Position numbers and translations under genes: made by a program. A stretch of 27,160 bases of DNA, from the IMG/VR virus record IMGVR_UViG_2778261088_000006, one strand, 5' to 3'. Source of the DNA: a virus (lineage: Duplodnaviria; Heunggongvirae; Uroviricota; Caudoviricetes). The notes beneath the pieces are model-generated. The model did no database searches and was not told the origin of the DNA. It saw only the letters and a program-made list of their open reading frames with translations. Positions 3,658 to 18,733 of this stretch are shown in pieces; the stretch's first letter is position 1; each line of letters begins with the position of its first letter.

Positions 3658-4794
3658 ATGAAAGCAATGGGGAATGAAGTTTATCAAAGTCAAAAATGCA
3701 AGTTGAAATATTCAAAATCTCAAATTGATAGGGCTGCTCAATTGATAAGGCACGGGTGTAGTGACGAAGAAAGGCAGCAAGCTATTGAAATGATACAAAA
3801 TTTCCGTGAGCTGCATCTTTATCCATTAATGCTCATGAAAAATCATTTAGCAAGAGCAGCTGCTAAGGTTGACAAAGACAAAAAGATTCTCGTTGCAAGA
3901 AGACTTAAGCGACTTTCTACCATAATAGATAAACTAGAGCGTCCTAGTCTTGATGGAGGCAGAACTAGCAATGCAATTAAATTAACACGGATGCAGGACG
4001 TTGGCGGATGTAGGGCCATTGTCAGAAACTTAGACCAGTTGATACAGCTAAAGGAACGTCTTTTAAAAAGCAAATCTGTTCATAGGATTGTTAAAGAGTA
4101 TGATTATCTTACTCCCAAAGACAGCGGCTATAGTGGAATCCACCTTGCATACAGTTGCTTCGATCAGAAAGAGGAGCAATATCCGTGGCGAAAAACAAAG
4201 ATTGAGATACAGTTAAGAACTCAATTGCAGCATGCTTGGGCTACTAGCCTTGAAATAATTGATACCCTTGAAGGTATCAAGCTGAAAACTTCAAGTGAAG
4301 GGCATCCAGAATGGAGACGATTTTTCTATCTAGCCGGATGTCTTGTAGCGCACGACGAAAAAGCCTGCACTCTTGATGAGCTAGTTGTATCTCAGTATGA
4401 AGGCGAGCTTAAAGAGCTGGAACGGACTTTATCTGTACGGAGGAAACTAAGCACATACACCCTCGCCTTAAATTTAACTTCTGACGCGAATTTGATTAAG
4501 AAGTTGCCAAAAAATCATAAGGGGCATTACTTAGTAACAATGAGAAATGCAGAAAACAAGCCCAATACAAAAAACAAAAAAATGTTCCTAGTGTCTGTTC
4601 GCGCATTTAAAACAAAAGAAGCAGATGAAGCCCTTGAGGCCTTAAATAAAGACGATTCTGATCCTAATGTATTGATATCTGTTCTCGTTGCTACAGATAA
4701 CATTAAGTCACTAAAAAAAGCCTACCCCAACTATTTTGGCTCAACAAACCAGTTTACAAAATTCTTAGATAAGCATCTTCGTAACGAAGGATAG
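3658..4794 (+). CDS. RelA/SpoT-domain nucleotidyltransferase with C-terminal extension; candidate fused toxSAS (CapRel-like) defence protein
   Basis: 378-aa ORF with the RelA/SpoT synthetase motifs in order: RLKRLSTIIDKLER (aa 81-94), DVGGCRAIV (114-122), KDSGYSGIHL (154-163), EIQLRTQLQHAWA (183-195). About 180 residues follow the catalytic core. An alternative start ATG lies at 3667. Confidence 0.8.
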   Translation: MKAMGNEVYQSQKCKLKYSKSQIDRAAQLIRHGCSDEERQQAIEMIQNFRELHLYPLMLMKNHLARAAAKVDKDKKILVARRLKRLSTIIDKLERPSLDGGRTSNAIKLTRMQDVGGCRAIVRNLDQLIQLKERLLKSKSVHRIVKEYDYLTPKDSGYSGIHLAYSCFDQKEEQYPWRKTKIEIQLRTQLQHAWATSLEIIDTLEGIKLKTSSEGHPEWRRFFYLAGCLVAHDEKACTLDELVVSQYEGELKELERTLSVRRKLSTYTLALNLTSDANLIKKLPKNHKGHYLVTMRNAENKPNTKNKKMFLVSVRAFKTKEADEALEALNKDDSDPNVLISVLVATDNIKSLKKAYPNYFGSTNQFTKFLDKHLRNEG

Positions 4795-4800
4795 TTGCTT

Positions 4801-4829
4801 AATTTTGCCCGGTAATTCCGGGCAAAATT
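4801..4829. terminator. Perfect hairpin between convergent genes; probable bidirectional terminator
   Basis: AATTTTGCCCGG-TAATT-CCGGGCAAAATT: 12-bp perfect stem with 5-nt loop, 7 nt after the RelA/SpoT stop and immediately after the stop of the minus-strand gene at 4831. Confidence 0.45.
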
Positions 4830-4830
4830 G

Positions 4831-5079
4831 TCAATCTGCATTCAGGAGCAATGCGTTATCTATGATGATCTGCTCCCATTCTTCGAATGCCCGGTCGCGG
4901 ACGCCCTGGGGAACGCTGTTAGTTTTGAAATCGACGACCGTACGCCATTTCCCGTCCGGACGGTACATGCGCAGAGCTTTACTTCCCCCTTCCCTGCGCA
5001 CCTCAACGTTATGCTTGTCAGCAAACTCTTGTAATGCTCGTAGCGTCCCATGCTTTACTGTGTAGTATCGCTTTTTCAA
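4831..5079 (-). CDS. lxc: Small protein, 82 aa; position matches P1 Lxc
   Basis: ORF overlapping the upstream ulx-like gene by 4 nt (ATGA) and lying downstream of darB on the same strand, the order I recall for P1 (lxc, ulx, darB). Symbol assigned by synteny only. Confidence 0.55.
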   Translation of the reverse strand: MKKRYYTVKHGTLRALQEFADKHNVEVRREGGSKALRMYRPDGKWRTVVDFKTNSVPQGVRDRAFEEWEQIIIDNALLLNAD

Positions 5080-5516
5080 GTTTTCTCTCCAGCCTGTGCC
5101 AAGGCTTCAACTTCCAAATCGTAAGACTCAAACTCATAGTCCTGGTCGTCAACCTCTTCAGGCACTGGCAGTAAATGCCAGGCTGAGTATATCTGACCAT
5201 TATCAAAACGCTCCTGGCTGTAGAGCGTCGCGGCTATGAGCGTCAGCGCCGGACGGTCATAACGGTAAATTTTGCGAACGTCACGGTCAACGAGACGACC
5301 GAAATTACCATAACCGCGCTCCAGTAATAATTTTTTAATTTCCGGCCAGTATGGACCATAGCTGCGGTACAGGCGGGGATTTTTCAGTAATCGCCCGCGT
5401 AGCCCTGACAGGAAGAAATCAACGTATTCGTCTTCTGTCTTTCCTAACAACGCTGTACGGAGTACCGCCTCAAGATATGTTTTATTCGGTTTTATTGTAT
5501 CAGATAGTGTGGCCAT
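5076..5516 (-). CDS. ulx: 146-aa protein; position matches P1 Ulx
   Basis: ORF immediately downstream of darB on the minus strand (darB stop 5550, this start 5516). Symbol assigned by synteny only. Confidence 0.55.
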   Translation of the reverse strand: MATLSDTIKPNKTYLEAVLRTALLGKTEDEYVDFFLSGLRGRLLKNPRLYRSYGPYWPEIKKLLLERGYGNFGRLVDRDVRKIYRYDRPALTLIAATLYSQERFDNGQIYSAWHLLPVPEEVDDQDYEFESYDLEVEALAQAGEKT

Positions 5517-5549
5517 ATTATGCGACGCCCGGCGAACCGGGCGCTCCTG

Positions 5550-8500
5550 TTATGCGTATTGTTGGATGACGGCCAGAACGTCCGCCACGTTGTGTTTTGT
5601 CTCGATAATCCACCAGTTACCCGGGAAATCGCTGTTCTTCGCCTTCGCTGGCAGCCAGCGAGCGCCGAATTTCGCCTTGATTGCGTCTTTCGCACGGAAA
5701 AGAACGCCTTTCATGCCTGAGGCTTCCTGAAGCCCAAATACCTCGCCAGCGGCGAATTTTGGTGCGTACATCATCTTCAGGTCGGCGGTGGATACGCGAT
5801 AATTCAGACCAAGAGACTGAGCTATGCTGGTGGCATCACCCTGTATTGATGATAACTCTTCTTGTTTCTCGTTTCTGGCGGCAATCTCTTCCTCCGTGAT
5901 GTTGCCAAGGGCCAGGTTTATCCGATCAGCGTCGGCCTGTTTCTCTTCATCGGTGCGCCCGGCAAGAACCGTGTTAATTCTCTGCAATATCTCCACATGA
6001 TTCTTGCGCATGCTGAGCAATTCCGGCGTAACCTCGTTAAGATCCACCAGCCCAAGGATGGCAAGGTCGGAAAACATTGATACCAGGTTGTAGGTCATGC
6101 GATAGCTGAGTTGACCATAGGCTGATGGCAACTGCACCGCATCCATTTTATAGGCATCCATAAATTTAGAGCCGTCGTTTACGACATCCGCAATTGCCGG
6201 TGTGATTTTTCCTGTGGTGGCGGCCTCCCTGATTGCTGTTACCCACGATTGAGTCAGCGCGGAAACTGCATGATTCAGATTGGCTTTGCGTTCTGCTGCA
6301 ATGCGCGCGCTTGCAGCGTCCATTGACTGTTTGATCTCGTCTTTATTGCTGTAAATGCCAATGGTGCCAAACTGTGCTGTGGTGATCTCATAATCTGACG
6401 CCCGGAACTCATTGGTACCGAAAATGGCATTGGTGACTTCAAGTTCAGAATCCCCGTTACGAGTAGCCCCCTGGCTTGTTTTTTCCGGCATTCTGGCGAT
6501 CGCATCCGCTATTTTCTCCTGAATTGCTTCAGGGGATAGCGTATCTCCGTATGACGCGATTACATCGCCATAATTGGAGCCAAACAGTTCAACCAGGAAT
6601 GTTTCTGCCGAACGGATCTGGCGGTTATTCCCTTCCGACATCATACCAAGCACCCATTTTGCAATTGACGACTTCAGCGCGCCGTCACGGCGATCCGGGT
6701 AAACCGCATGCTTCAGTGGGTCCGTATAGGTACCAACAAAATCGATGCTATAGCCTGACTCTGTAGTCTGAACGCCGTATGAGTCAGTGATTTTGATCAT
6801 GCCGCGCTGCTGGAAACGGTAGAAATCGTCACAGGAAATGATGTCGTTAATCCCGGCGATGGAGACGCCACCACTGATTTTCTGCATAACAGCATCTTCA
6901 TCGGGAGTTACATCCACCTGTTTATCCAGCGTCTTCACATCCCAGTTACCCGATTTGGTGCCTCTTAAGGTAAAGATGATCTCCACGTCTGCGCGCTGGC
7001 TGTCGAAGTCCAACGACTTAATGCGAACGATATCACCGGCACAATCGTAGTATTGGCCTACACGCCATGAGCGATCGCCGATAACAAGGAACTCATTCGC
7101 ATGGTTAACCAGATCAGGATCAACATCCAGAATGCCTTTATTTATTGCATCCTCCACCAGCGGGCGCAGGCGTTTGATATCCGTCGCGGCCTTCTGAGTA
7201 CGGTTCAATAATTTCTCATAGCGGGAGATGGCCTGAGAGATATTAGCCTTGCGCTGAATGGCGCTTTTCAACGACGCGCGATACTGTGCTAACAACGTAC
7301 GGTCTGTGTGATGGACGCTACCCCAGCGGGCTTTCCAGTCTGCGTTATCAGCTGCTTTGGCCATTACCGCCTGTTTGAATTTAGCTACCTCGGCGGTGGT
7401 CTTTTCAAGTTCCGCTTTGCTTCGCTTTAATTCAGCGGTAAGTACCTCCACATCCTCGCCAGCTGCGTGCTGCGCCTTGATGTAATTCTGAAGGTCGATA
7501 GTAGCCTGTTCTTTCTGGCGAGCGCGTTTCGCAGCTTTCGCCTTATCCATTTGAACCTGCATCATTGCCAGACGTTCGCCGTCATCCTTCGCGGTATACA
7601 TCTGCATTTCGATCATGTCATTGGCGTCGGCGTTCTCCATTTCCGACTTATCTGAACGGAGGATATCGGAGATCCAGCCTGCTTTACGCTTCAGCGTCTT
7701 CAATCGGTATTCATCGAAAGACCCCTTGCCGCAGTAGTAGTGAACGCGAACGCTTGCACGGTTGGAGCCAACTCGAGCACCGCGACCGTTACGCTGTGCG
7801 ATACTGGCTGGTGTCCATGGCAACGTCAGATGATGGATGTCAGTCGTTCCTCGATGCAGGTTGATACCCACCTCTGCCTTTTTGTTGCAGATGATGATCG
7901 GAGTCCGGCCCTCCTGGAAGTCGGCTGCAATCTTTTCCAGACCGCCCAACGACATTTCATTCTGCTGCGCGATATAGGCGTCATACAGAGCCATTTGCTC
8001 GTTGTATTTCGCTATCTGTGCATCTGTTGGTTCATCCGGTAACTCTTTCGGCGGTTTAACCGCTTTCAGTTTCTTACCGGTTTTACCTGCCTCGGCAACC
8101 GTCTGAGCATTCAGGATCCCCACCTTTGAAGGTTCAAGGTTAAGAGCATTGCAGATAATGCGCTTGAGCTTCTGGTGCTGCGTTTTTTCGTCCGTGAAGA
8201 TGATTTGCTTACCTTCCGGGAAAAACTCCTTCAGCGTGGCGATCAGCTTCACGTATTTGGGCGTAACGGGGTGAGTTACAGTCTGTTCGTCAATGCCAAA
8301 CTTGGCCAAGCGCTTATTCACTTCCTGCTCGAACGCTTCCGGAACCTGCAACTGAATAAACTCGCCCTTATCTATCAGGGAGTATTGCGATTGCTGCGTG
8401 ATTGAATCATCACTGTCGTCGTCTTCGCTGGTGGCTTGTTTGGGCAAACTGTCCGCCAGCTGCTGCACCGCATCGGCGTACTCCGGCAGGAAACGATAGG

Positions 8501-11500: not shown

Positions 11501-12317
11501 GCATCAGCACCACATCTACGACCGTACTGGTCCCGTTTGCGTCAAAAGTACCGGTAGGCAGGCGGTGGGCACCAAGAAATTCAGCTTTCCGTGATAGGCG
11601 CAGGCGTAACCGCTTCATGTTTGAACCTGAAACAATGGACGGCGGCACAATCACACACATGAATCCGCCAGGCTTTATCTTGTCCAGCATGCGGAGCATG
11701 AAGTAAGAACCCATGTCCGTTTCTTCTGCGTAAGGCTTATCGATGTTGCGTGTGTTATCACGACCACCGAACGGAACGTTACCCACAACATGGTCGAATG
11801 AATCGTTAGGCGTGCTTACAGCCAGTTGTTCGAACGGGGAAATCTGTACGCTGTCTTCCGGATGTAACAGCTGGTTTATACGACCGGAAACACTGCTGAT
11901 CTCAGTCGCGGTCATCACCGTACCAACCGGTTTTGTCTCATTAAAAACGCCGGTGCCCGCCGATGGTTCCAGAGTGTTACCTACGTCCGCGCCATAGAGC
12001 TTCATGATCTCCCAGACGCCTTCAGCAATAGGCTTTGGTGTGTAATATTCGGAGACGGACCCGCCAATGCCGCCTTCACCAGTGTACCCGGCCAGGATCT
12101 GGCGCTGTTCATCTGTCAGTGTCGCGCCGTCCACCAGCGAATTAAGCAAATCTATCGCCTTCTGATTCGCCTCCCGGCGCAGTCGGTCATAGCTTTTGCC
12201 TTCCACCTTTTCCACGCCGTATTTAATCGGCGCTCGGTGAGATGTTATTGCCCTAATGTATTTCAATATTTCGCTGACACTTGAACAGCGAAACACCCCC
12301 ATAGATAGCTTGTTCAT
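5550..12317 (-). CDS. darB: Giant 2255-aa methyltransferase-helicase fusion; P1 DarB-like antirestriction protein
   Basis: Single 6.8-kb ORF. N-terminal N6-adenine methyltransferase motifs (LEPSAGTGVF SAM-binding, VVGNVPFGG catalytic). Central SF2 helicase motifs (GFGTGLGKTT Walker A, VIADEGHNYRN DExH box, LLTATPVVN motif III, QRNGRGAR motif VI). Length and architecture match P1 DarB as I recall it; portal, protease, lyz and ssb follow in the P1 order. Confidence 0.88.
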   Translation of the reverse strand: MNKLSMGVFRCSSVSEILKYIRAITSHRAPIKYGVEKVEGKSYDRLRREANQKAIDLLNSLVDGATLTDEQRQILAGYTGEGGIGGSVSEYYTPKPIAEGVWEIMKLYGADVGNTLEPSAGTGVFNETKPVGTVMTATEISSVSGRINQLLHPEDSVQISPFEQLAVSTPNDSFDHVVGNVPFGGRDNTRNIDKPYAEETDMGSYFMLRMLDKIKPGGFMCVIVPPSIVSGSNMKRLRLRLSRKAEFLGAHRLPTGTFDANGTSTVVDVVLMRKHPAEMAEKIPLVDESTLESANVLWPTFISGKWFEKDGRRFVHGTQEKGFQGRIEVRADGQIDNQSLKAKLIHRFESRIDWSLLDMAEPSPTADVVGEGEMRLINGVWQKYAGGRWIEADAGKELKIDAASYGADSWEALQRNLTTTEGRLGMTFTQMANVRDKYTTSISDDMVQLVDWINSQPEKYRERLYRGAMIGRMLIEYQDMKAAGHSAEQIEQQRLSLVSRLQAEIDRFGNPGRGPIAKLSGSGARSWFAFRGAIKLDGTISDELAGKLVTHDSSASYDSTSYQDTLRYLYSDLTRDPIQLDDFRLAFTGELPASDEELLNLLASTPGIAVSPYGGIVPFARATSGDINEIVAPKQEFLATLPDGPVKNNVLNQLAAIEEKRIKTPAENIRFKLNSRWFDRSVILEFLQENGYPDLRYVQSVQLEGDEMVSDTYHGGDGLFVGHRYGVVQRKDKETGEIRYEWDRKSGENATGFPAQLEKYLNGARIGGKDSATANGYREQMALLEDQFNKWIKTHDRYDELVAKYNDVFNSNIPYEHSGDPLGLKGLSGKRQPFDYQNSEVRRLSEDGRGILGFGTGLGKTTTALALEAFNYENGRSTRTAYVVPKSVLENWYYEAKEFLSEEAFSNYLFVGLDVLMDGDQIRQVPVLDENGKPVVGADGTPVMRDALKLADEATITARMNAIPHSNYRAVVFTKEQYARIPLRDDTVDEHAQDMLYDFVAAGRVASAMDSDSHRKEAARRRVLSEYSDTGTEKAEKYPYFEDMGFDSVIADEGHNYRNSYKNGREASQLAYLPTSAVAQSARDMAIKNAYLMKKNGGRGPVLLTATPVVNTPIDAYNMLSHVLPKEYWQKMGIYGPDDFVKFFGKTRLETVQKISGEVEEKMALVGFENLDALRGIFHRWTTLKTAEDVKDTVEIPELDEHQQDAPLTEEQLAAYEELRQQAEAAAKANNGVTTSVDEDGVIEHEKARPIFSIIRDMDRVCTDMDLYYRRITYRFLPEYADAVQQLADSLPKQATSEDDDSDDSITQQSQYSLIDKGEFIQLQVPEAFEQEVNKRLAKFGIDEQTVTHPVTPKYVKLIATLKEFFPEGKQIIFTDEKTQHQKLKRIICNALNLEPSKVGILNAQTVAEAGKTGKKLKAVKPPKELPDEPTDAQIAKYNEQMALYDAYIAQQNEMSLGGLEKIAADFQEGRTPIIICNKKAEVGINLHRGTTDIHHLTLPWTPASIAQRNGRGARVGSNRASVRVHYYCGKGSFDEYRLKTLKRKAGWISDILRSDKSEMENADANDMIEMQMYTAKDDGERLAMMQVQMDKAKAAKRARQKEQATIDLQNYIKAQHAAGEDVEVLTAELKRSKAELEKTTAEVAKFKQAVMAKAADNADWKARWGSVHHTDRTLLAQYRASLKSAIQRKANISQAISRYEKLLNRTQKAATDIKRLRPLVEDAINKGILDVDPDLVNHANEFLVIGDRSWRVGQYYDCAGDIVRIKSLDFDSQRADVEIIFTLRGTKSGNWDVKTLDKQVDVTPDEDAVMQKISGGVSIAGINDIISCDDFYRFQQRGMIKITDSYGVQTTESGYSIDFVGTYTDPLKHAVYPDRRDGALKSSIAKWVLGMMSEGNNRQIRSAETFLVELFGSNYGDVIASYGDTLSPEAIQEKIADAIARMPEKTSQGATRNGDSELEVTNAIFGTNEFRASDYEITTAQFGTIGIYSNKDEIKQSMDAASARIAAERKANLNHAVSALTQSWVTAIREAATTGKITPAIADVVNDGSKFMDAYKMDAVQLPSAYGQLSYRMTYNLVSMFSDLAILGLVDLNEVTPELLSMRKNHVEILQRINTVLAGRTDEEKQADADRINLALGNITEEEIAARNEKQEELSSIQGDATSIAQSLGLNYRVSTADLKMMYAPKFAAGEVFGLQEASGMKGVLFRAKDAIKAKFGARWLPAKAKNSDFPGNWWIIETKHNVADVLAVIQQYA

Positions 12318-15158: not shown

Positions 15159-15413
15159 TTATCGCCTTCGTCTGCGTGCCATATATTTGCGCACCGCGCG
15201 ACGTGGGCAATCTGAAGCGGTTTCTTTCTGCTGCATCAATCTTGCAGCCATGCTCAAAAATGTCAGGCACAGCCGAAGCCCGGCATATAATAGCGGTTCC
15301 AGTGGCCACGTCTCATTGAGCACATATACCGCCATGAAAATCGAGTCGAAAACTATCGCCGCCAGCGATAACTTCATTGTCGAAAGTCGGCGTAGCTGCC
15401 GGAGTTTATTCAT
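15159..15413 (-). CDS. Small hydrophobic protein (84 aa) translationally coupled to the end of lyz; possible lysis accessory protein
   Basis: Its ATG (15411-15413) overlaps the lyz stop (ATGAATAA). Contains a hydrophobic segment (LSLAAIVFDSIFMAVYVL) and an Arg-rich C-terminus. No family recognised. Confidence 0.3.
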   Translation of the reverse strand: MNKLRQLRRLSTMKLSLAAIVFDSIFMAVYVLNETWPLEPLLYAGLRLCLTFLSMAARLMQQKETASDCPRRAVRKYMARRRRR

Positions 15414-15963
15414 TGACCGGCCCCGTCAGGCAAAGCTGGCGTTCTTTTTCACGGCGAATCTTTAACCCGGGCAGGGGGACGCCGTTACTGTTCACAAAAT
15501 CAGGGAGATGGTTACACATATTCACCCATTCCCCTTTCTGCGCCCACTTGTGGATGGACGTTTCGACTCGCATGCCTCGCGCTTTGCTGTAGTAGGTCCG
15601 TAAACTATTGCATCCCATATTGAATGCCGCGCTTGTCATTGCGCTGAAGGCATTATCGGGCATGTCTTTGCCCCGGAAGTGCTGATTAATACAGCGTTCA
15701 GCGATCAGGATATTCTTTTCCCAATCAGCGGCGATTTGCTGGTCTGTTTTTCGCACACCCGGCGTTACCCCGTGTGTATTACCGATCCCGTCAGTCCATA
15801 CCCCTGCCGGGCACATGTATGGATCACGTCGGCAACCTTCAGCGTTACCAATCAGCTCAAGCCCCGCCTGGTTGGTTCGCACATTGCCATTACCCATCAC
15901 GATGGTAATCATCACCGCGATAGCGCAAATTGCACCGCCTCCTGCGGCTGTTTTTCCCTTCAT
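15406..15963 (-). CDS. lyz: SAR endolysin (lysozyme), P1 Lyz
   Basis: Translation from the ATG at 15963 begins MKGKTAAGGGAICAIAVMITIVMGNGNVRTNQAGLELIGNAEGCRRDPYMCPAG..., the signal-anchor-release N-terminus and lysozyme domain of P1 Lyz as I recall it. GAGG ribosome-binding site 7 nt upstream. The ORF track extends upstream to 16062 but the internal ATG is the likely start. Confidence 0.9.
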   Translation of the reverse strand: MKGKTAAGGGAICAIAVMITIVMGNGNVRTNQAGLELIGNAEGCRRDPYMCPAGVWTDGIGNTHGVTPGVRKTDQQIAADWEKNILIAERCINQHFRGKDMPDNAFSAMTSAAFNMGCNSLRTYYSKARGMRVETSIHKWAQKGEWVNMCNHLPDFVNSNGVPLPGLKIRREKERQLCLTGPVNE

Positions 15964-16096
15964 AAAGACCTCATAAGCGAATTTTTTACGCTCCAGGACA
16001 AACACCCATTCACAGCCAATACCGACTGACTCGATCCCTTTAGAAGACACAGGATAATGCAAATCACTTGTTAGCTACGTTTCAAAGATATACATT

Positions 16097-16113
16097 ATTG
16101 CTCTAATTAATTT
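16097..16113. promoter_or_regulatory. P1 C1-repressor operator-like site upstream of ssb
   Basis: ATTGCTCTAATTAATTT matches the recalled C1 operator consensus ATTGCTCTAATAAATTT at 16 of 17 positions; sits in the AT-rich lyz/ssb divergent region 20 nt before the ssb start. Confidence 0.45.
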
Positions 16114-16132: not shown

Positions 16133-16621
16133 GTGGCACAACGCGGTGTAAACAAAGTCATCCTGATTGGTACCCTGGGGCAAGACCCGGAGATCAGGTA
16201 TATACCAAATGGCGGCGCGGTCGGAAGACTCAGCATCGCAACGAATGAATCATGGCGCGACAAGCAAACGGGCCAACAGAAAGAGCAAACAGAATGGCAT
16301 AAAGTCGTTTTGTTCGGGAAACTTGCTGAAATTGCGAGTGAATATTTACGAAAAGGTTCTCAGGTCTACATCGAAGGGAAACTTAAAACCCGTAAGTGGA
16401 CAGATGACGCCGGTGTAGAACGTTACACGACGGAAATTATCGTCAGCCAGGGCGGCACCATGCAAATGATCGGCGCTCGCCGTGACGATTCACAGTCCTC
16501 AAATGGCTGGGGGCAATCAAACCAACCTCAAAACCACCAGCAATACAGTGGTGGCGGTAAACCTCAGAGCAACGCCAATAACGAACCTCCAATGGACTTT
16601 GACGACGATATTCCGTTTTGA
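16133..16621 (+). CDS. ssb: Single-stranded DNA-binding protein
   Basis: GTG start with AGGT ribosome-binding site; N-terminus [30 protein letters not shown], a Gly/Gln-rich linker and the acidic C-terminal tail DFDDDIPF typical of bacterial and phage SSB. Confidence 0.92.
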
Positions 16622-16818
16622 ATGTGTAAAAAACGACTGAAAGAAAAGCGGTGGTCCAGACGCCGACAAAAGCACGAACTCGCTCAAAAACGCCAAAGTT
16701 GGCAATGGCACGCGCTTTTAACGAATAGAACACCCCGAGATATTGCTTTCGCTGGTGGGAAAACATTCCTAACCAACCTGAAGGCGCAATACATCAGTTT
16801 TTAAGCAGAGAAAAGACT

Positions 16819-17613
16819 ATGGCAGCACAAAATACTAAAACCATTCAATACCGCCTACGTAATGGCCAGAGTGTCGAAGTGACCATCAATAATGATGGAG
16901 TGCCAGGCGAAAAGGTTTCTATCTCTGATCTGGCTATCGAAAAAACCATCATGTGCCACCTTGGCTTTACTGAAGAAGTGAGCAAAAAGCATGGTGTAGC
17001 TATCTGGCGAACAATGGATACTGGCATGCGCAGATTCATTACCGCTCGTACCCCAGGTATGACCATGATGGACCTCATGCAGATTGCACCGCTGTTTGAG
17101 TGTGAACCTTTGGATGTATTCAGCAATCCAGCTATCTGCCAGCAGTTATATGGTGAGATGAAACTCGCTGTTACCCCCATTGTGCTGCATGAAGGATCGC
17201 TTGCTGGCGTATGGAAAGTAGAGCGAATTTCAAGCTACATGCCCTTCCACATCCATGTCAACGGCGTAATCGCAGGTGAAAATCAACCTGTTTCAGTTAC
17301 AAAGTCAGACCTCAAGCGCGCAATTCTTGAAGCAAGTTGTCGAGTTATCGGCCTTGGCAAACAGTCTTATGTTTCCTTCCCGGCTGGCCCTGAAGGCCCG
17401 GCAGAAATTCTGATTATGGATGCCGATCTGCTCTGGCAAATACAGTTTCTGATTGGCAAAAGCATCATCCGCGCTGAAGAACTCGATCAGTACATTACCT
17501 GCACGATGACAGATGAAGTCAAAAGTGTGGCTATAGCCAAGGCCCGGAACCTGTGTCGTGCTGCATTAACAGAACTGCAAGAAAACACCACGGAAGAGGT
17601 GGAAAGTGACTAA
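16819..17613 (+). CDS. Hypothetical protein, 264 aa; first gene of an unassigned two-gene operon
   Basis: ATG preceded by GAGAAAAG; clean ORF; its stop overlaps the start of the next gene. No motif recognised. Confidence 0.6.
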   Translation: MAAQNTKTIQYRLRNGQSVEVTINNDGVPGEKVSISDLAIEKTIMCHLGFTEEVSKKHGVAIWRTMDTGMRRFITARTPGMTMMDLMQIAPLFECEPLDVFSNPAICQQLYGEMKLAVTPIVLHEGSLAGVWKVERISSYMPFHIHVNGVIAGENQPVSVTKSDLKRAILEASCRVIGLGKQSYVSFPAGPEGPAEILIMDADLLWQIQFLIGKSIIRAEELDQYITCTMTDEVKSVAIAKARNLCRAALTELQENTTEEVESD

Positions 17614-18700
17614 TCGTATACAGAATGAACCTGCCTGGTTAGCACTGATAGAACAGTATAAAGACAATTGGGAACTGGCAGCGAAAGAGTTGCTTGATAT
17701 TGAGTTAACACCTCATCAAGCAAAAATTATTAACGCGATAAAGAACACCGGAGCCAAAGTCACTGCCACCACACCACATGGTATTGGGGAAACCTCTATT
17801 GTGGCAGTGATTAGCATCCTGCAAACAATACTGTATTCGTGTTCCCGTACAGTGGTTGTTTCTCCTGCTATTAACGATAGTCGAAAAACAATAATTGACT
17901 ATATGTTCCGTTATTGGGAGCGAGTTACCCAAAAACACCCTTTTCTTGGCAATCATTTCAGAATGCACCCTGACAAAGGGTTGGTGCATATCAGTGAAAT
18001 ATGGGGATGCGTCTATATAACCTATTGTCTGAATAACGAAGTGTCTCTGGCTGGTTTTACTGGACCGCACGATCTTTTCATCGTTATTAACTCGGCGGAA
18101 ATCAGCGATCGCGCTCATGCAGTGATAACTGGCAATTTAACCAATTATGACTCGCGCCTGCTGTTGCTGTCGAAACCATCGGAACGCGAGAAAGGGTACT
18201 TTTATGATTCGCATCACCGGTTGGCCCATAGTAAAAACAATCCTGCTGGTTTTTTCACGGCGATAACTCTAAACACAGAGGATTCACCTCTCGTTTCTGA
18301 AGCATATCTTGAATTCAAAGCCAAAGAGTTTGGTGGGCGCAATAGCGATGAATATCGCCGATTGATCTTGGGGAAATTTCCCGGGATTCGGGAGTTGATG
18401 GAAAAGTCATCTGTTCCCCGTAATATGCACTTCACAATGACTGACGGTAGTAAATGGGTAGTGCCTACGATCGTGATCGCCAAACACCATGCGAAACATC
18501 ACGCTCAAAAACACAACTCCAGCACATTAGACTGGCTGAAGGCCTATACAATACCGTTATTCTCGGCAAACCATAACGCTATAGCTGAATGGGCTAAACA
18601 AATCCCCTGGCAGGATGTGGCTGAAGAGGCATTTGTCGAAAAACCACCAAGAGATTTGCACGAGCACTGTTGGCTGACATCAGAAAAGAGCTTCTCGTGA
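17606..18700 (+). CDS. Hypothetical protein, 364 aa, with degenerate P-loop-like and Walker-B-like segments
   Basis: GTG start overlapping the upstream stop by 8 nt, preceded by GGAAGAGGTGG. Contains TTPHGIGETS (P-loop-like but with E where the lysine is expected) and DLFIVINSAE about 90 residues later; His-rich stretch HHAKHHAQKH. Confidence 0.6.
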   Translation: MTNRIQNEPAWLALIEQYKDNWELAAKELLDIELTPHQAKIINAIKNTGAKVTATTPHGIGETSIVAVISILQTILYSCSRTVVVSPAINDSRKTIIDYMFRYWERVTQKHPFLGNHFRMHPDKGLVHISEIWGCVYITYCLNNEVSLAGFTGPHDLFIVINSAEISDRAHAVITGNLTNYDSRLLLLSKPSEREKGYFYDSHHRLAHSKNNPAGFFTAITLNTEDSPLVSEAYLEFKAKEFGGRNSDEYRRLILGKFPGIRELMEKSSVPRNMHFTMTDGSKWVVPTIVIAKHHAKHHAQKHNSSTLDWLKAYTIPLFSANHNAIAEWAKQIPWQDVAEEAFVEKPPRDLHEHCWLTSEKSFS

Positions 18701-18703
18701 GGT

Positions 18704-18733
18704 AAAAATCCCGCCGATTGGCGGGATTTCTTT
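18704..18733. terminator. Bidirectional rho-independent terminator between convergent transcription units
   Basis: AAAATCCCGCC-GATT-GGCGGGATTT followed by CTTT; lies between the stop of the plus-strand 364-aa gene (18700) and the stop of the minus-strand 102-aa gene (18732). Confidence 0.6.

Follow-up and report, generated by a model that had tools for sequence, protein, structure and literature searches.

What are the two overlapping genes between ssb and hxr in a P1-like element, and why should such an element keep the second of them, which no longer looks equipped for catalysis? The question is raised by the IMG/VR virus record IMGVR_UViG_2778261088_000006, a stretch of 27,160 nucleotides (nt) that was analyzed whole and is called the window below. 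The first-pass annotation of this DNA reported two genes of 264 and 364 amino acid residues (aa) overlapping by 8 nt, and open reading frames (ORFs) are found exactly there:

16819-17613, + strand: isaA (gene 1), ATG start, 264 aa, a P1-family protein
17606-18700, + strand: gene 2, GTG start, 364 aa, a PacB paralog ("pseudo-terminase")

Sequence comparison indicates that gene 2 is a paralog of PacB, the large terminase of P1, without the catalytic residues and the nuclease domain. The identity of the locus, i.e., P1 isaA and, after it, an accessory PacB paralog gene, is considered very probable. What is new is the recognition of gene 2 as a conserved, non-catalytic PacB paralog paired with IsaA; isaA and the slot that holds the pair were already known. 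As a whole, the best explanation is a dead PacB paralog encoded beside isaA and acting on packaging by binding, to which we give a probability of roughly 0.4.

A PacB Paralog without Catalytic Residues

Over aa 1-285, the gene 2 product is 34% identical to P1 PacB (BLASTP, E 1e-51), and tblastn searches of phage genomes give about 34% identity to the PacBs of P1, P7, RCS47, SJ46, and D6 (E 1e-43 to 4e-46). The protein matches PHROG 2, the large terminases, at 9e-8, and the gene 2 family profile reaches large terminases of solved structure, namely Sf6 gp2, P74-26, and T4 gp17. The layout of the protein is as follows.

17606-18385, + strand: PacB-like ATPase-fold domain, aa 1-260, from PacB alignments and the profile match to solved terminases
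17768-17797, + strand: degenerate Walker A segment TTPHGIGETS, aa 55-64; the Lys position is Glu62; PacB has HGTGKS
18071-18100, + strand: degenerate Walker B segment DLFIVINSAE, aa 156-165; the Asp-Glu positions are Ile161-Asn162; PacB has LLYIIDEASG
18386-18697, + strand: C-terminal tail domain, aa 261-364, about 100 aa, replacing the terminase nuclease domain

TTPHGIGETS, with Glu where the Walker A Lys is expected, and DLFIVINSAE had been picked out before as signs of a degenerate nucleoside triphosphatase fold. Both segments are present, and the fold is PacB-like. In one respect the earlier reading is not borne out: gene 2 does belong to a well-characterized structural family, that of the large terminase ATPase domain, with PacB closest to it, and is a non-catalytic offshoot.

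P1 PacB and gene 2 have a homologous N-terminal ATPase-fold domain and family motifs in common, and the non-catalytic motifs GYFYDSHH, SPLV, and GGR-S--YR--LG-FP are kept in gene 2. In contrast, PacB keeps the Walker A Lys, the Walker B Asp-Glu, and the QPT of the coupling motif, all of which are replaced in gene 2 (for the coupling motif, PacB SQPT versus gene 2 SKPS, that is, QPT to KPS). In an alignment of 46 sequences, the Walker A Lys and Ser/Thr are present in all 35 catalytic terminases; at the first Walker B position, 33 of these have Asp and 2 have Glu, and at the second all 35 have Glu. None of the 11 short degenerate paralogs in the alignment has the Lys or the Asp-Glu pair, and the replacing residues vary from paralog to paralog.

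The two proteins also part at the C-terminus, where PacB has its nuclease domain and gene 2 has an unrelated 100-aa tail. The RNase H-like nuclease domain of terminases is absent from gene 2, whose aa 261-364 align with nothing in PacB; the lengths are 364 aa for gene 2 versus 494 aa for PacB. The genetic setting differs as well. Gene 2 follows ssb and isaA, not a small terminase gene in a late packaging module; that is, PacB comes from the late pac operon, whereas gene 2 lies in a presumed early, C1-controlled accessory slot that is optional among P1-like elements. One trait of arrangement is common to both, as pacB overlaps the pacA stop just as gene 2 overlaps the isaA stop. Since gene 2 fails on Walker A, on Walker B and the coupling motif, on the nuclease domain, and on packaging-module context, the label of terminase should not be given to it, and we infer that its product neither hydrolyzes ATP nor cleaves DNA.

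Only three GenBank phage records carry gene 2, each of them showing a second match in the translated search. Two of the three name gene 2 'terminase large subunit', and RefSeq Escherichia coli genomes name it 'hypothetical protein'. The annotation calls for correction: gene 2 should not count as a terminase in phage typing or in the prediction of packaging strategy.

Among the PacB-like large terminases, P0049 and P0060 have a long intein-like insertion inside the Walker A loop.

Relatives, Selection, and History

Relatives were sought with HMMER among 1.84 billion representatives, and those of the first 47 matches with at least 240 aa were aligned. Full-length relatives are few: this set holds one, P0023 (366 aa), together with several shorter degenerate paralogs of 244-444 aa, the rest being ordinary terminases of about 500 aa. 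In IMG/VR, the tail-bearing copies fall into three clades. Clade 1 is 96-99% identical to the window copy (19 loci), clade 2 about 52% (13 loci), and clade 3, the P0023-like copies, about 48% (4 loci). The loci of P0027 and P0028 were not found in IMG/VR; for P0002, P0019, P0021, and P0188, genomic context is unrecorded or lies on contigs too short to inform. In the clade 3 copies of L051-L054, around 6001-7098, the P-loop reads GIGHKS or GIGQKT and Walker B reads IIVMD or IIVTE.

Could gene 2 simply be a duplicated pacB decaying into a non-functional remnant? Such a remnant would be expected to have lost its catalytic motifs and nuclease domain, as gene 2 has, and the former catalytic positions do vary freely among relatives. 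The frames tell otherwise. Codon by codon, all 33 copies checked in clades 1 and 2 are uninterrupted over 364 codons and carry the same degenerate motifs, the four clade 3 copies read through 366 codons, and 101 of 101 E. coli matches are full length. Between clades 1 and 2, which are 52% identical, the nonsynonymous divergence (dN) is 0.39 and the synonymous divergence (dS) 2.9, a saturated value, for a dN/dS of about 0.14. The ribosome-binding site and overlapping start are conserved, and a conserved tail domain has been acquired. By these sequence measures, gene 2 is maintained under purifying selection; such conservation contradicts simple decay into a relic, the likelihood of which is reckoned to be very slight.

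In a neighbor-joining tree, a single clade nested among the PacB-like terminases (bootstrap 170/200) takes in 10 of the 11 degenerate paralogs; the remaining one, P0062, arose separately. The simplest history that the tree suggests is an old pacB duplication in the P1 lineage, followed by loss of the nuclease and decay of the active site, and then by gain of the tail in one branch.

Gene 1 Is P1 isaA

Both genes had been left unassigned, neither being recognized as a P1 core protein. For gene 1 this does not hold. It matches P1 IsaA at 254 of 264 residues (96%), and isaA stands directly after ssb in the window as in P1; by identity and synteny, gene 1 is isaA (IS1-associated gene A), an already known gene. 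isaA was scored non-essential in a genome-wide CRISPR interference screen of P1 (PMC10695390).

The two IsaAs differ in annotated length and in what follows them: P1 IsaA is given as 320 aa and precedes IS1 and isaB, and the window IsaA has 264 aa and precedes gene 2. The start annotated in P1 lies 56 codons earlier, 30 nt after ssb. Within that longer start region, the window (16622-16818) has an in-frame TAG where P1 has AAG, and therefore the 264-aa protein is taken as the conserved form.

IsaA homologs, down to 31% identity, were found only on contigs of about 85-110 kb, or on plasmids, that carry P1-type c1 and cre, in Escherichia, Klebsiella, Raoultella, and Enterobacter. IsaA shows no similarity to PacA and is unrelated to it. 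Pfam, NCBIfam, and PADLOC return nothing for IsaA or gene 2, PADLOC models give no family for IsaA, gene 2, or P1 IsaB at E up to 1, and single-sequence searches of PDB sequences give no match for IsaA or gene 2. IsaA also occurs alone, i.e., without gene 2, in P1 and many plasmids.

In P1-like contigs of Raoultella, Enterobacter, and Klebsiella (L038-L042, about 3700-6900), IsaA homologs end an operon downstream of cre that also holds Tad2-like (PF11195), N6_N4 methyltransferase, and dUTPase genes. This looks like an anti-defence-rich early operon.

The IsaA-Paralog Pair and Its Neighbors

In clade 1, ssb, isaA, and gene 2 follow one another and are met by hxr and ddrB, which run the other way. 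The paralog of clades 2 and 3 is likewise preceded immediately by an IsaA homolog, with 47-49% identity to the window IsaA. Here the pair is found elsewhere in the genome, with pacB, c1, cre, and two small genes ahead of it and doc and a UmuD-like gene behind. At the clade 2 locus L035, a PacB-like gene lies about 5 kb upstream. Stop and start overlap in the three clades, by 8, 11, and 14 nt, with purine-rich sequence just 5′ of each start. Thus, the order IsaA then paralog is conserved over about 50% protein divergence and two genome positions.

A tail-less paralog has other neighbors. P0032 (263 aa; L046, 5330-7885) sits between ref, which encodes a RecA-dependent nuclease, and a homolog (35% identity) of P1 mat; a distant IsaA is encoded 2.7 kb upstream in the same element. 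The P0032 start overlaps the ref stop (TAATG). The ref gene of P1, the counterpart of the ref coupled to P0032, carries the C1 operator Oref. The mat homolog, named for 'maturation control', comes directly after P0032. Two other assignments were considered and rejected. One is that P1 Mat, which has the same place after ref, is itself a tail-less member of the dead-terminase family; P0032 sits between ref and the true mat homolog. The other is that the ORF upstream of P0032 is a second IsaA; this ORF is Ref.

Expression of the Pair

The signals around the pair are as follows.

16097-16113, + strand: C1 repressor operator Ossb (ATTGCTCTAATTAATTT), upstream of ssb, one mismatch versus the C1 operator consensus
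16133-16621, + strand: ssb, first gene of the presumed operon, 100% identity to P1 Ssb
17596-17602, + strand: Shine-Dalgarno-like GAGGTGG for gene 2, within the isaA 3′ end, read from sequence
18706-18729, unstranded: terminator-like hairpin, 10-base-pair (bp) stem with 6 G-C pairs, 4-nt loop
18732-19040, - strand: hxr, right-hand edge of the variable slot, 97-100% identity to P1 Hxr over 82 aa

Over its whole length, the ssb promoter and operator region shows no difference from that of P1, annotated there as P2ssb/Ossb/P1ssb. Consensus scans of the interval between ssb and isaA found no promoter-like sites and no + strand terminator-like sites, and the detailed annotation of P1 likewise gives no promoter or terminator there. 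It follows that isaA and gene 2 are probably transcribed from the C1-repressed ssb promoters, with Ossb the likely control point of the ssb-isaA-gene 2 transcript. Co-transcription with ssb would probably begin once C1 repression is lifted, early after induction or infection and before the late pacAB. The coupling of P0032 to ref, a gene under a C1 operator in P1, speaks for early expression as well.

The isaA-gene 2 overlap of 8 nt spans 17606-17613 (GTGACTAA), and the junction is identical across 20 related loci. Translational coupling, proposed earlier, draws support from this overlap and the GAGGTGG site; translation of gene 2 is probably coupled to that of isaA. The bidirectional terminator was also rightly recognized. 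The hairpin is placed between the convergent stops of gene 2 (18700) and hxr (18732) and is flanked by A-rich sequence (AAAAA) upstream and T-rich sequence (CTTT) downstream, and on these features it is the terminator common to the convergent ssb-isaA-gene 2 and ddrB-hxr transcripts.

A Variable Slot

P1 had been credited, with some doubt, with only hxr between ssb and ddrB. In fact, P1 has isaA, IS1 (insB, insA), isaB, and hxr there. Similarity to P1 ends exactly at the isaA stop codon, and gene 2 is absent from P1. That gene 2 might be the uninterrupted form of P1 isaB was considered and rejected, as IsaB and gene 2 have zero similarity.

Compared across P1-like elements, the interval is variable: it may hold isaA alone, with gene 2, or, as in P1, with IS1 and isaB; a DUF2829 gene may be added between ssb and isaA; and other states have ompC or a HipA-family yjjJ gene. 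In PLSDB, 509 plasmids match an ssb-to-hxr query, 119 of them covering at least 80% of it; one carrier of gene 2, CP057875, is 100% identical across ssb-hxr. Among 5426 complete E. coli genomes, gene 2 is present in 100 and isaA in 335, in both cases nearly always on plasmids. Plasmids without gene 2 have the same hairpin directly after the isaA stop, so that its presence or absence amounts to a clean insertion or deletion of gene 2 between this stop and the hairpin. P1 lacks the gene and yet is viable, so gene 2 is accessory: optional equipment of P1-like elements and not core machinery.

The slot had been guessed to be a second variable cargo site of undescribed function. The variability stands, as the alternative gene contents attest; the site itself, on the other hand, is the published variable region 2, or RD-2, of P1-like phage-plasmids (PMC9603915, PMC6906374). 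As far as the available portions of those two papers go, the region (isaA-IS1-isaB) is listed as variable, an ssb-hxr interval with alternative cargo among collinear elements, and its second ORF is not identified as a terminase paralog. The mBio paper on relAP1 was considered as an account of the slot and set aside, since it concerns RD-1.

Two slot variants deserve mention. In NZ_AP018798.1 (plasmid pE2855-2; L044, 5723-6835), an opposite-strand ompC porin gene lies between ssb and hxr and isaA is absent; an ompC porin borne by a phage-plasmid could alter receptor display. In CP142546.1 (L045, 2960-3010), which lacks gene 2, the final codons of isaA differ synonymously (GAAGTGGAAAGCGAT), and with these changes the GAGG ribosome-binding site and the GTG start that serve gene 2 are both lost. 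P1, likewise without gene 2, keeps both the GAGG site and the GTG start.

The Tail Domain and DNA Metabolism

Similarity to the gene 2 tail is found in stand-alone proteins of 98-123 aa and at the C-terminal end of PHROG 17928. The P1 relative Cronobacter phage JK004 encodes the tail domain as a separate 98-aa protein (L050, 4001-4297), two genes after a DnaB-like helicase. In Xanthomonas phages (Tenjo; L049, 1894-3309), it is the C-terminus of a 471-aa protein whose gene has recombinase, exonuclease, and SSB genes for neighbors. Between clades, identity is 61-65% in the tail versus 43-49% in the ATPase-like part.

These contexts raise the alternative of an exaptation to DNA metabolism. The ATPase fold, now dead, would serve as a DNA- or protein-binding module that the tail links to replication or recombination proteins, and gene 2 would have its role alongside Ssb and IsaA early in infection, apart from packaging. 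The company of the tail in JK004 and the Xanthomonas phages is what this alternative would lead one to expect, as are the place of gene 2 downstream of ssb on the same presumed transcript, the status of the tail as the best conserved part of the protein, and the position of the tail-less P0032 after ref. However, this is support from gene context, and in clades 2 and 3 the pair follows cre, away from ssb. Exaptation for DNA metabolism is judged unlikely.

A Proposed Role in Packaging

We return to the proposal that gene 2 acts on packaging. Because its catalytic residues and nuclease domain are lost and yet the gene is conserved, the protein probably exerts its effect through binding and not through catalysis. 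Paralogs that are pseudoenzymes generally act as regulators or competitors of the active enzyme, and on this ground gene 2 is proposed to engage the partners of the PacB ATPase domain. Made early with ssb as a non-catalytic terminase mimic, and probably acting together with IsaA, the protein would occupy PacA, pac DNA, the portal, or the PacB ring itself. It would thereby modulate or interfere with packaging, affecting either the timing of its own element or the packaging of a co-resident P1-like rival. This mechanism is offered tentatively, with the odds leaning against it. The position of P0032 next to mat fits it loosely.

Satellite packaging-interference proteins, i.e., the Ppi of Staphylococcus aureus pathogenicity islands, the Rpp of phage-inducible chromosomal islands, and satellite small terminases, bind the terminase complex and redirect or block packaging. 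By analogy, the concept proposed for gene 2 may be the same: non-catalytic binding to the terminase complex. The satellite proteins differ in being satellite-encoded and in targeting or replacing the small terminase, whereas gene 2 is carried by the phage. None of these interference proteins is known to us to be a dead paralog of the large terminase encoded in the phage's own genome, and literature searches gave no description of an inactive terminase paralog in P1-like phages.

Several points weigh against an action on packaging. The link of gene 2 to PacA, PacB, and the portal is conjectural. Gene 2 would be made from the presumed early operon, but the promoter of pacA and pacB in P1 is a late one; co-transcription with ssb is itself judged from consensus scans. 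The known contexts of the tail domain are those of replication and recombination, not packaging. Since gene 2 is only about 34% identical to every PacB variant, it does not mimic that of one particular rival. An AlphaFold2 model of the gene 2 product, built from 4 sequences, has a predicted local distance difference test score of 53.7 and was not used for fold search; at this score it is unusable, so surface mapping is impossible. Finally, clade 3 keeps a Lys-Ser pair shifted by one residue, together with one acidic Walker B residue. Clade 3 copies are thus less decayed than the window copy, and some relatives may retain residual nucleotide binding.

Terminase Sensing as the Main Rival

The main rival to the packaging proposal is immune evasion. 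An early terminase look-alike would occupy the terminase-sensing receptors (Avs1-3, Upx) without activating them or, in a weaker version, a paralog with another job would have lost its ATP site so that the sensors overlook it. The case starts from known phage proteins. T4 vs.8 and Ksap1/Ksap2 are stand-alone terminase-ATPase-like phage proteins (PMC13601566, PMC11564622). What they have in common with gene 2 is a lineage-restricted occurrence, similarity to the ATPase domain of the phage's large terminase, a gene position apart from the packaging module, and a non-essential look. The vs.8 protein, which keeps intact Walker A and B motifs, triggers EcAvs2 and is toxic with it (PMC13601566); gene 2, in contrast, has lost both motifs and has in addition a tail domain and an IsaA partner. 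As gene 2 derives from PacB and not from gp17, the duplication is independent of that of vs.8.

The terminase ATPase domain alone is a trigger for EcAvs2 and Upx, and Avs2 and Avs3 contact the active site and bound ATP (PMC13601566). Gene 2 has lost exactly the residues contacted by Avs2 and Avs3, and the authors of that study suggest that vs.8-like proteins may be anti-defence factors. The neighborhood is also suggestive. The gene 2 slot adjoins the dar/ddr anti-restriction operon, IsaA homologs are found in an operon with Tad2-like and orphan methyltransferase genes, and gene 2 would be expressed before the late terminase.

Against this, PADLOC and Pfam give no match for gene 2, and no earlier example of a mimic blocking a bacterial pattern-recognition receptor turned up in literature searches. 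A protein without its ATP site should bind Avs2 and Avs3 less well; this speaks against an efficient sponge and makes the sponge version less likely than the invisibility version. Upx recognition, moreover, is independent of catalytic residues, and even an inactive ATPase domain might therefore set off Upx. Taken together, immune evasion appears doubtful. The fuller form, in which IsaA and the dead terminase make up a counter-defence module whose ATP-blind mimic binds Avs1-3 or Upx non-productively or shields PacB, is improbable. If true, it would be the first phage-encoded viral-pattern mimic that blocks a bacterial pattern-recognition receptor, and the clade of degenerate PacB paralogs in P1-like elements would be an unrecognized anti-defence family.

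P1 serves as a model phage, and phage-plasmids of its type are common in Enterobacteria. Gene 2 touches both packaging control and terminase sensing, and it is common, conserved, and easy to test in P1. As reference P1 naturally lacks it, gain- and loss-of-function tests are straightforward. The questions opened are whether phages regulate or sabotage DNA packaging with pseudo-terminases, whether such paralogs interact with the terminase-sensing immune receptors known in these hosts, and what role IsaA plays.

Minor Observations in the Window

A second, weaker C1-operator-like site (ATTGCCCTAATGTATTT), with three mismatches versus the consensus, is found at 12247-12263. Upstream of ssb, on the minus strand, a lysozyme ORF at 15406-16062 encodes 218 aa. 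P1 matches this ORF in two pieces, of 26 aa and 192 aa (tblastn), which suggests an N-terminal frame difference relative to P1 lyz.

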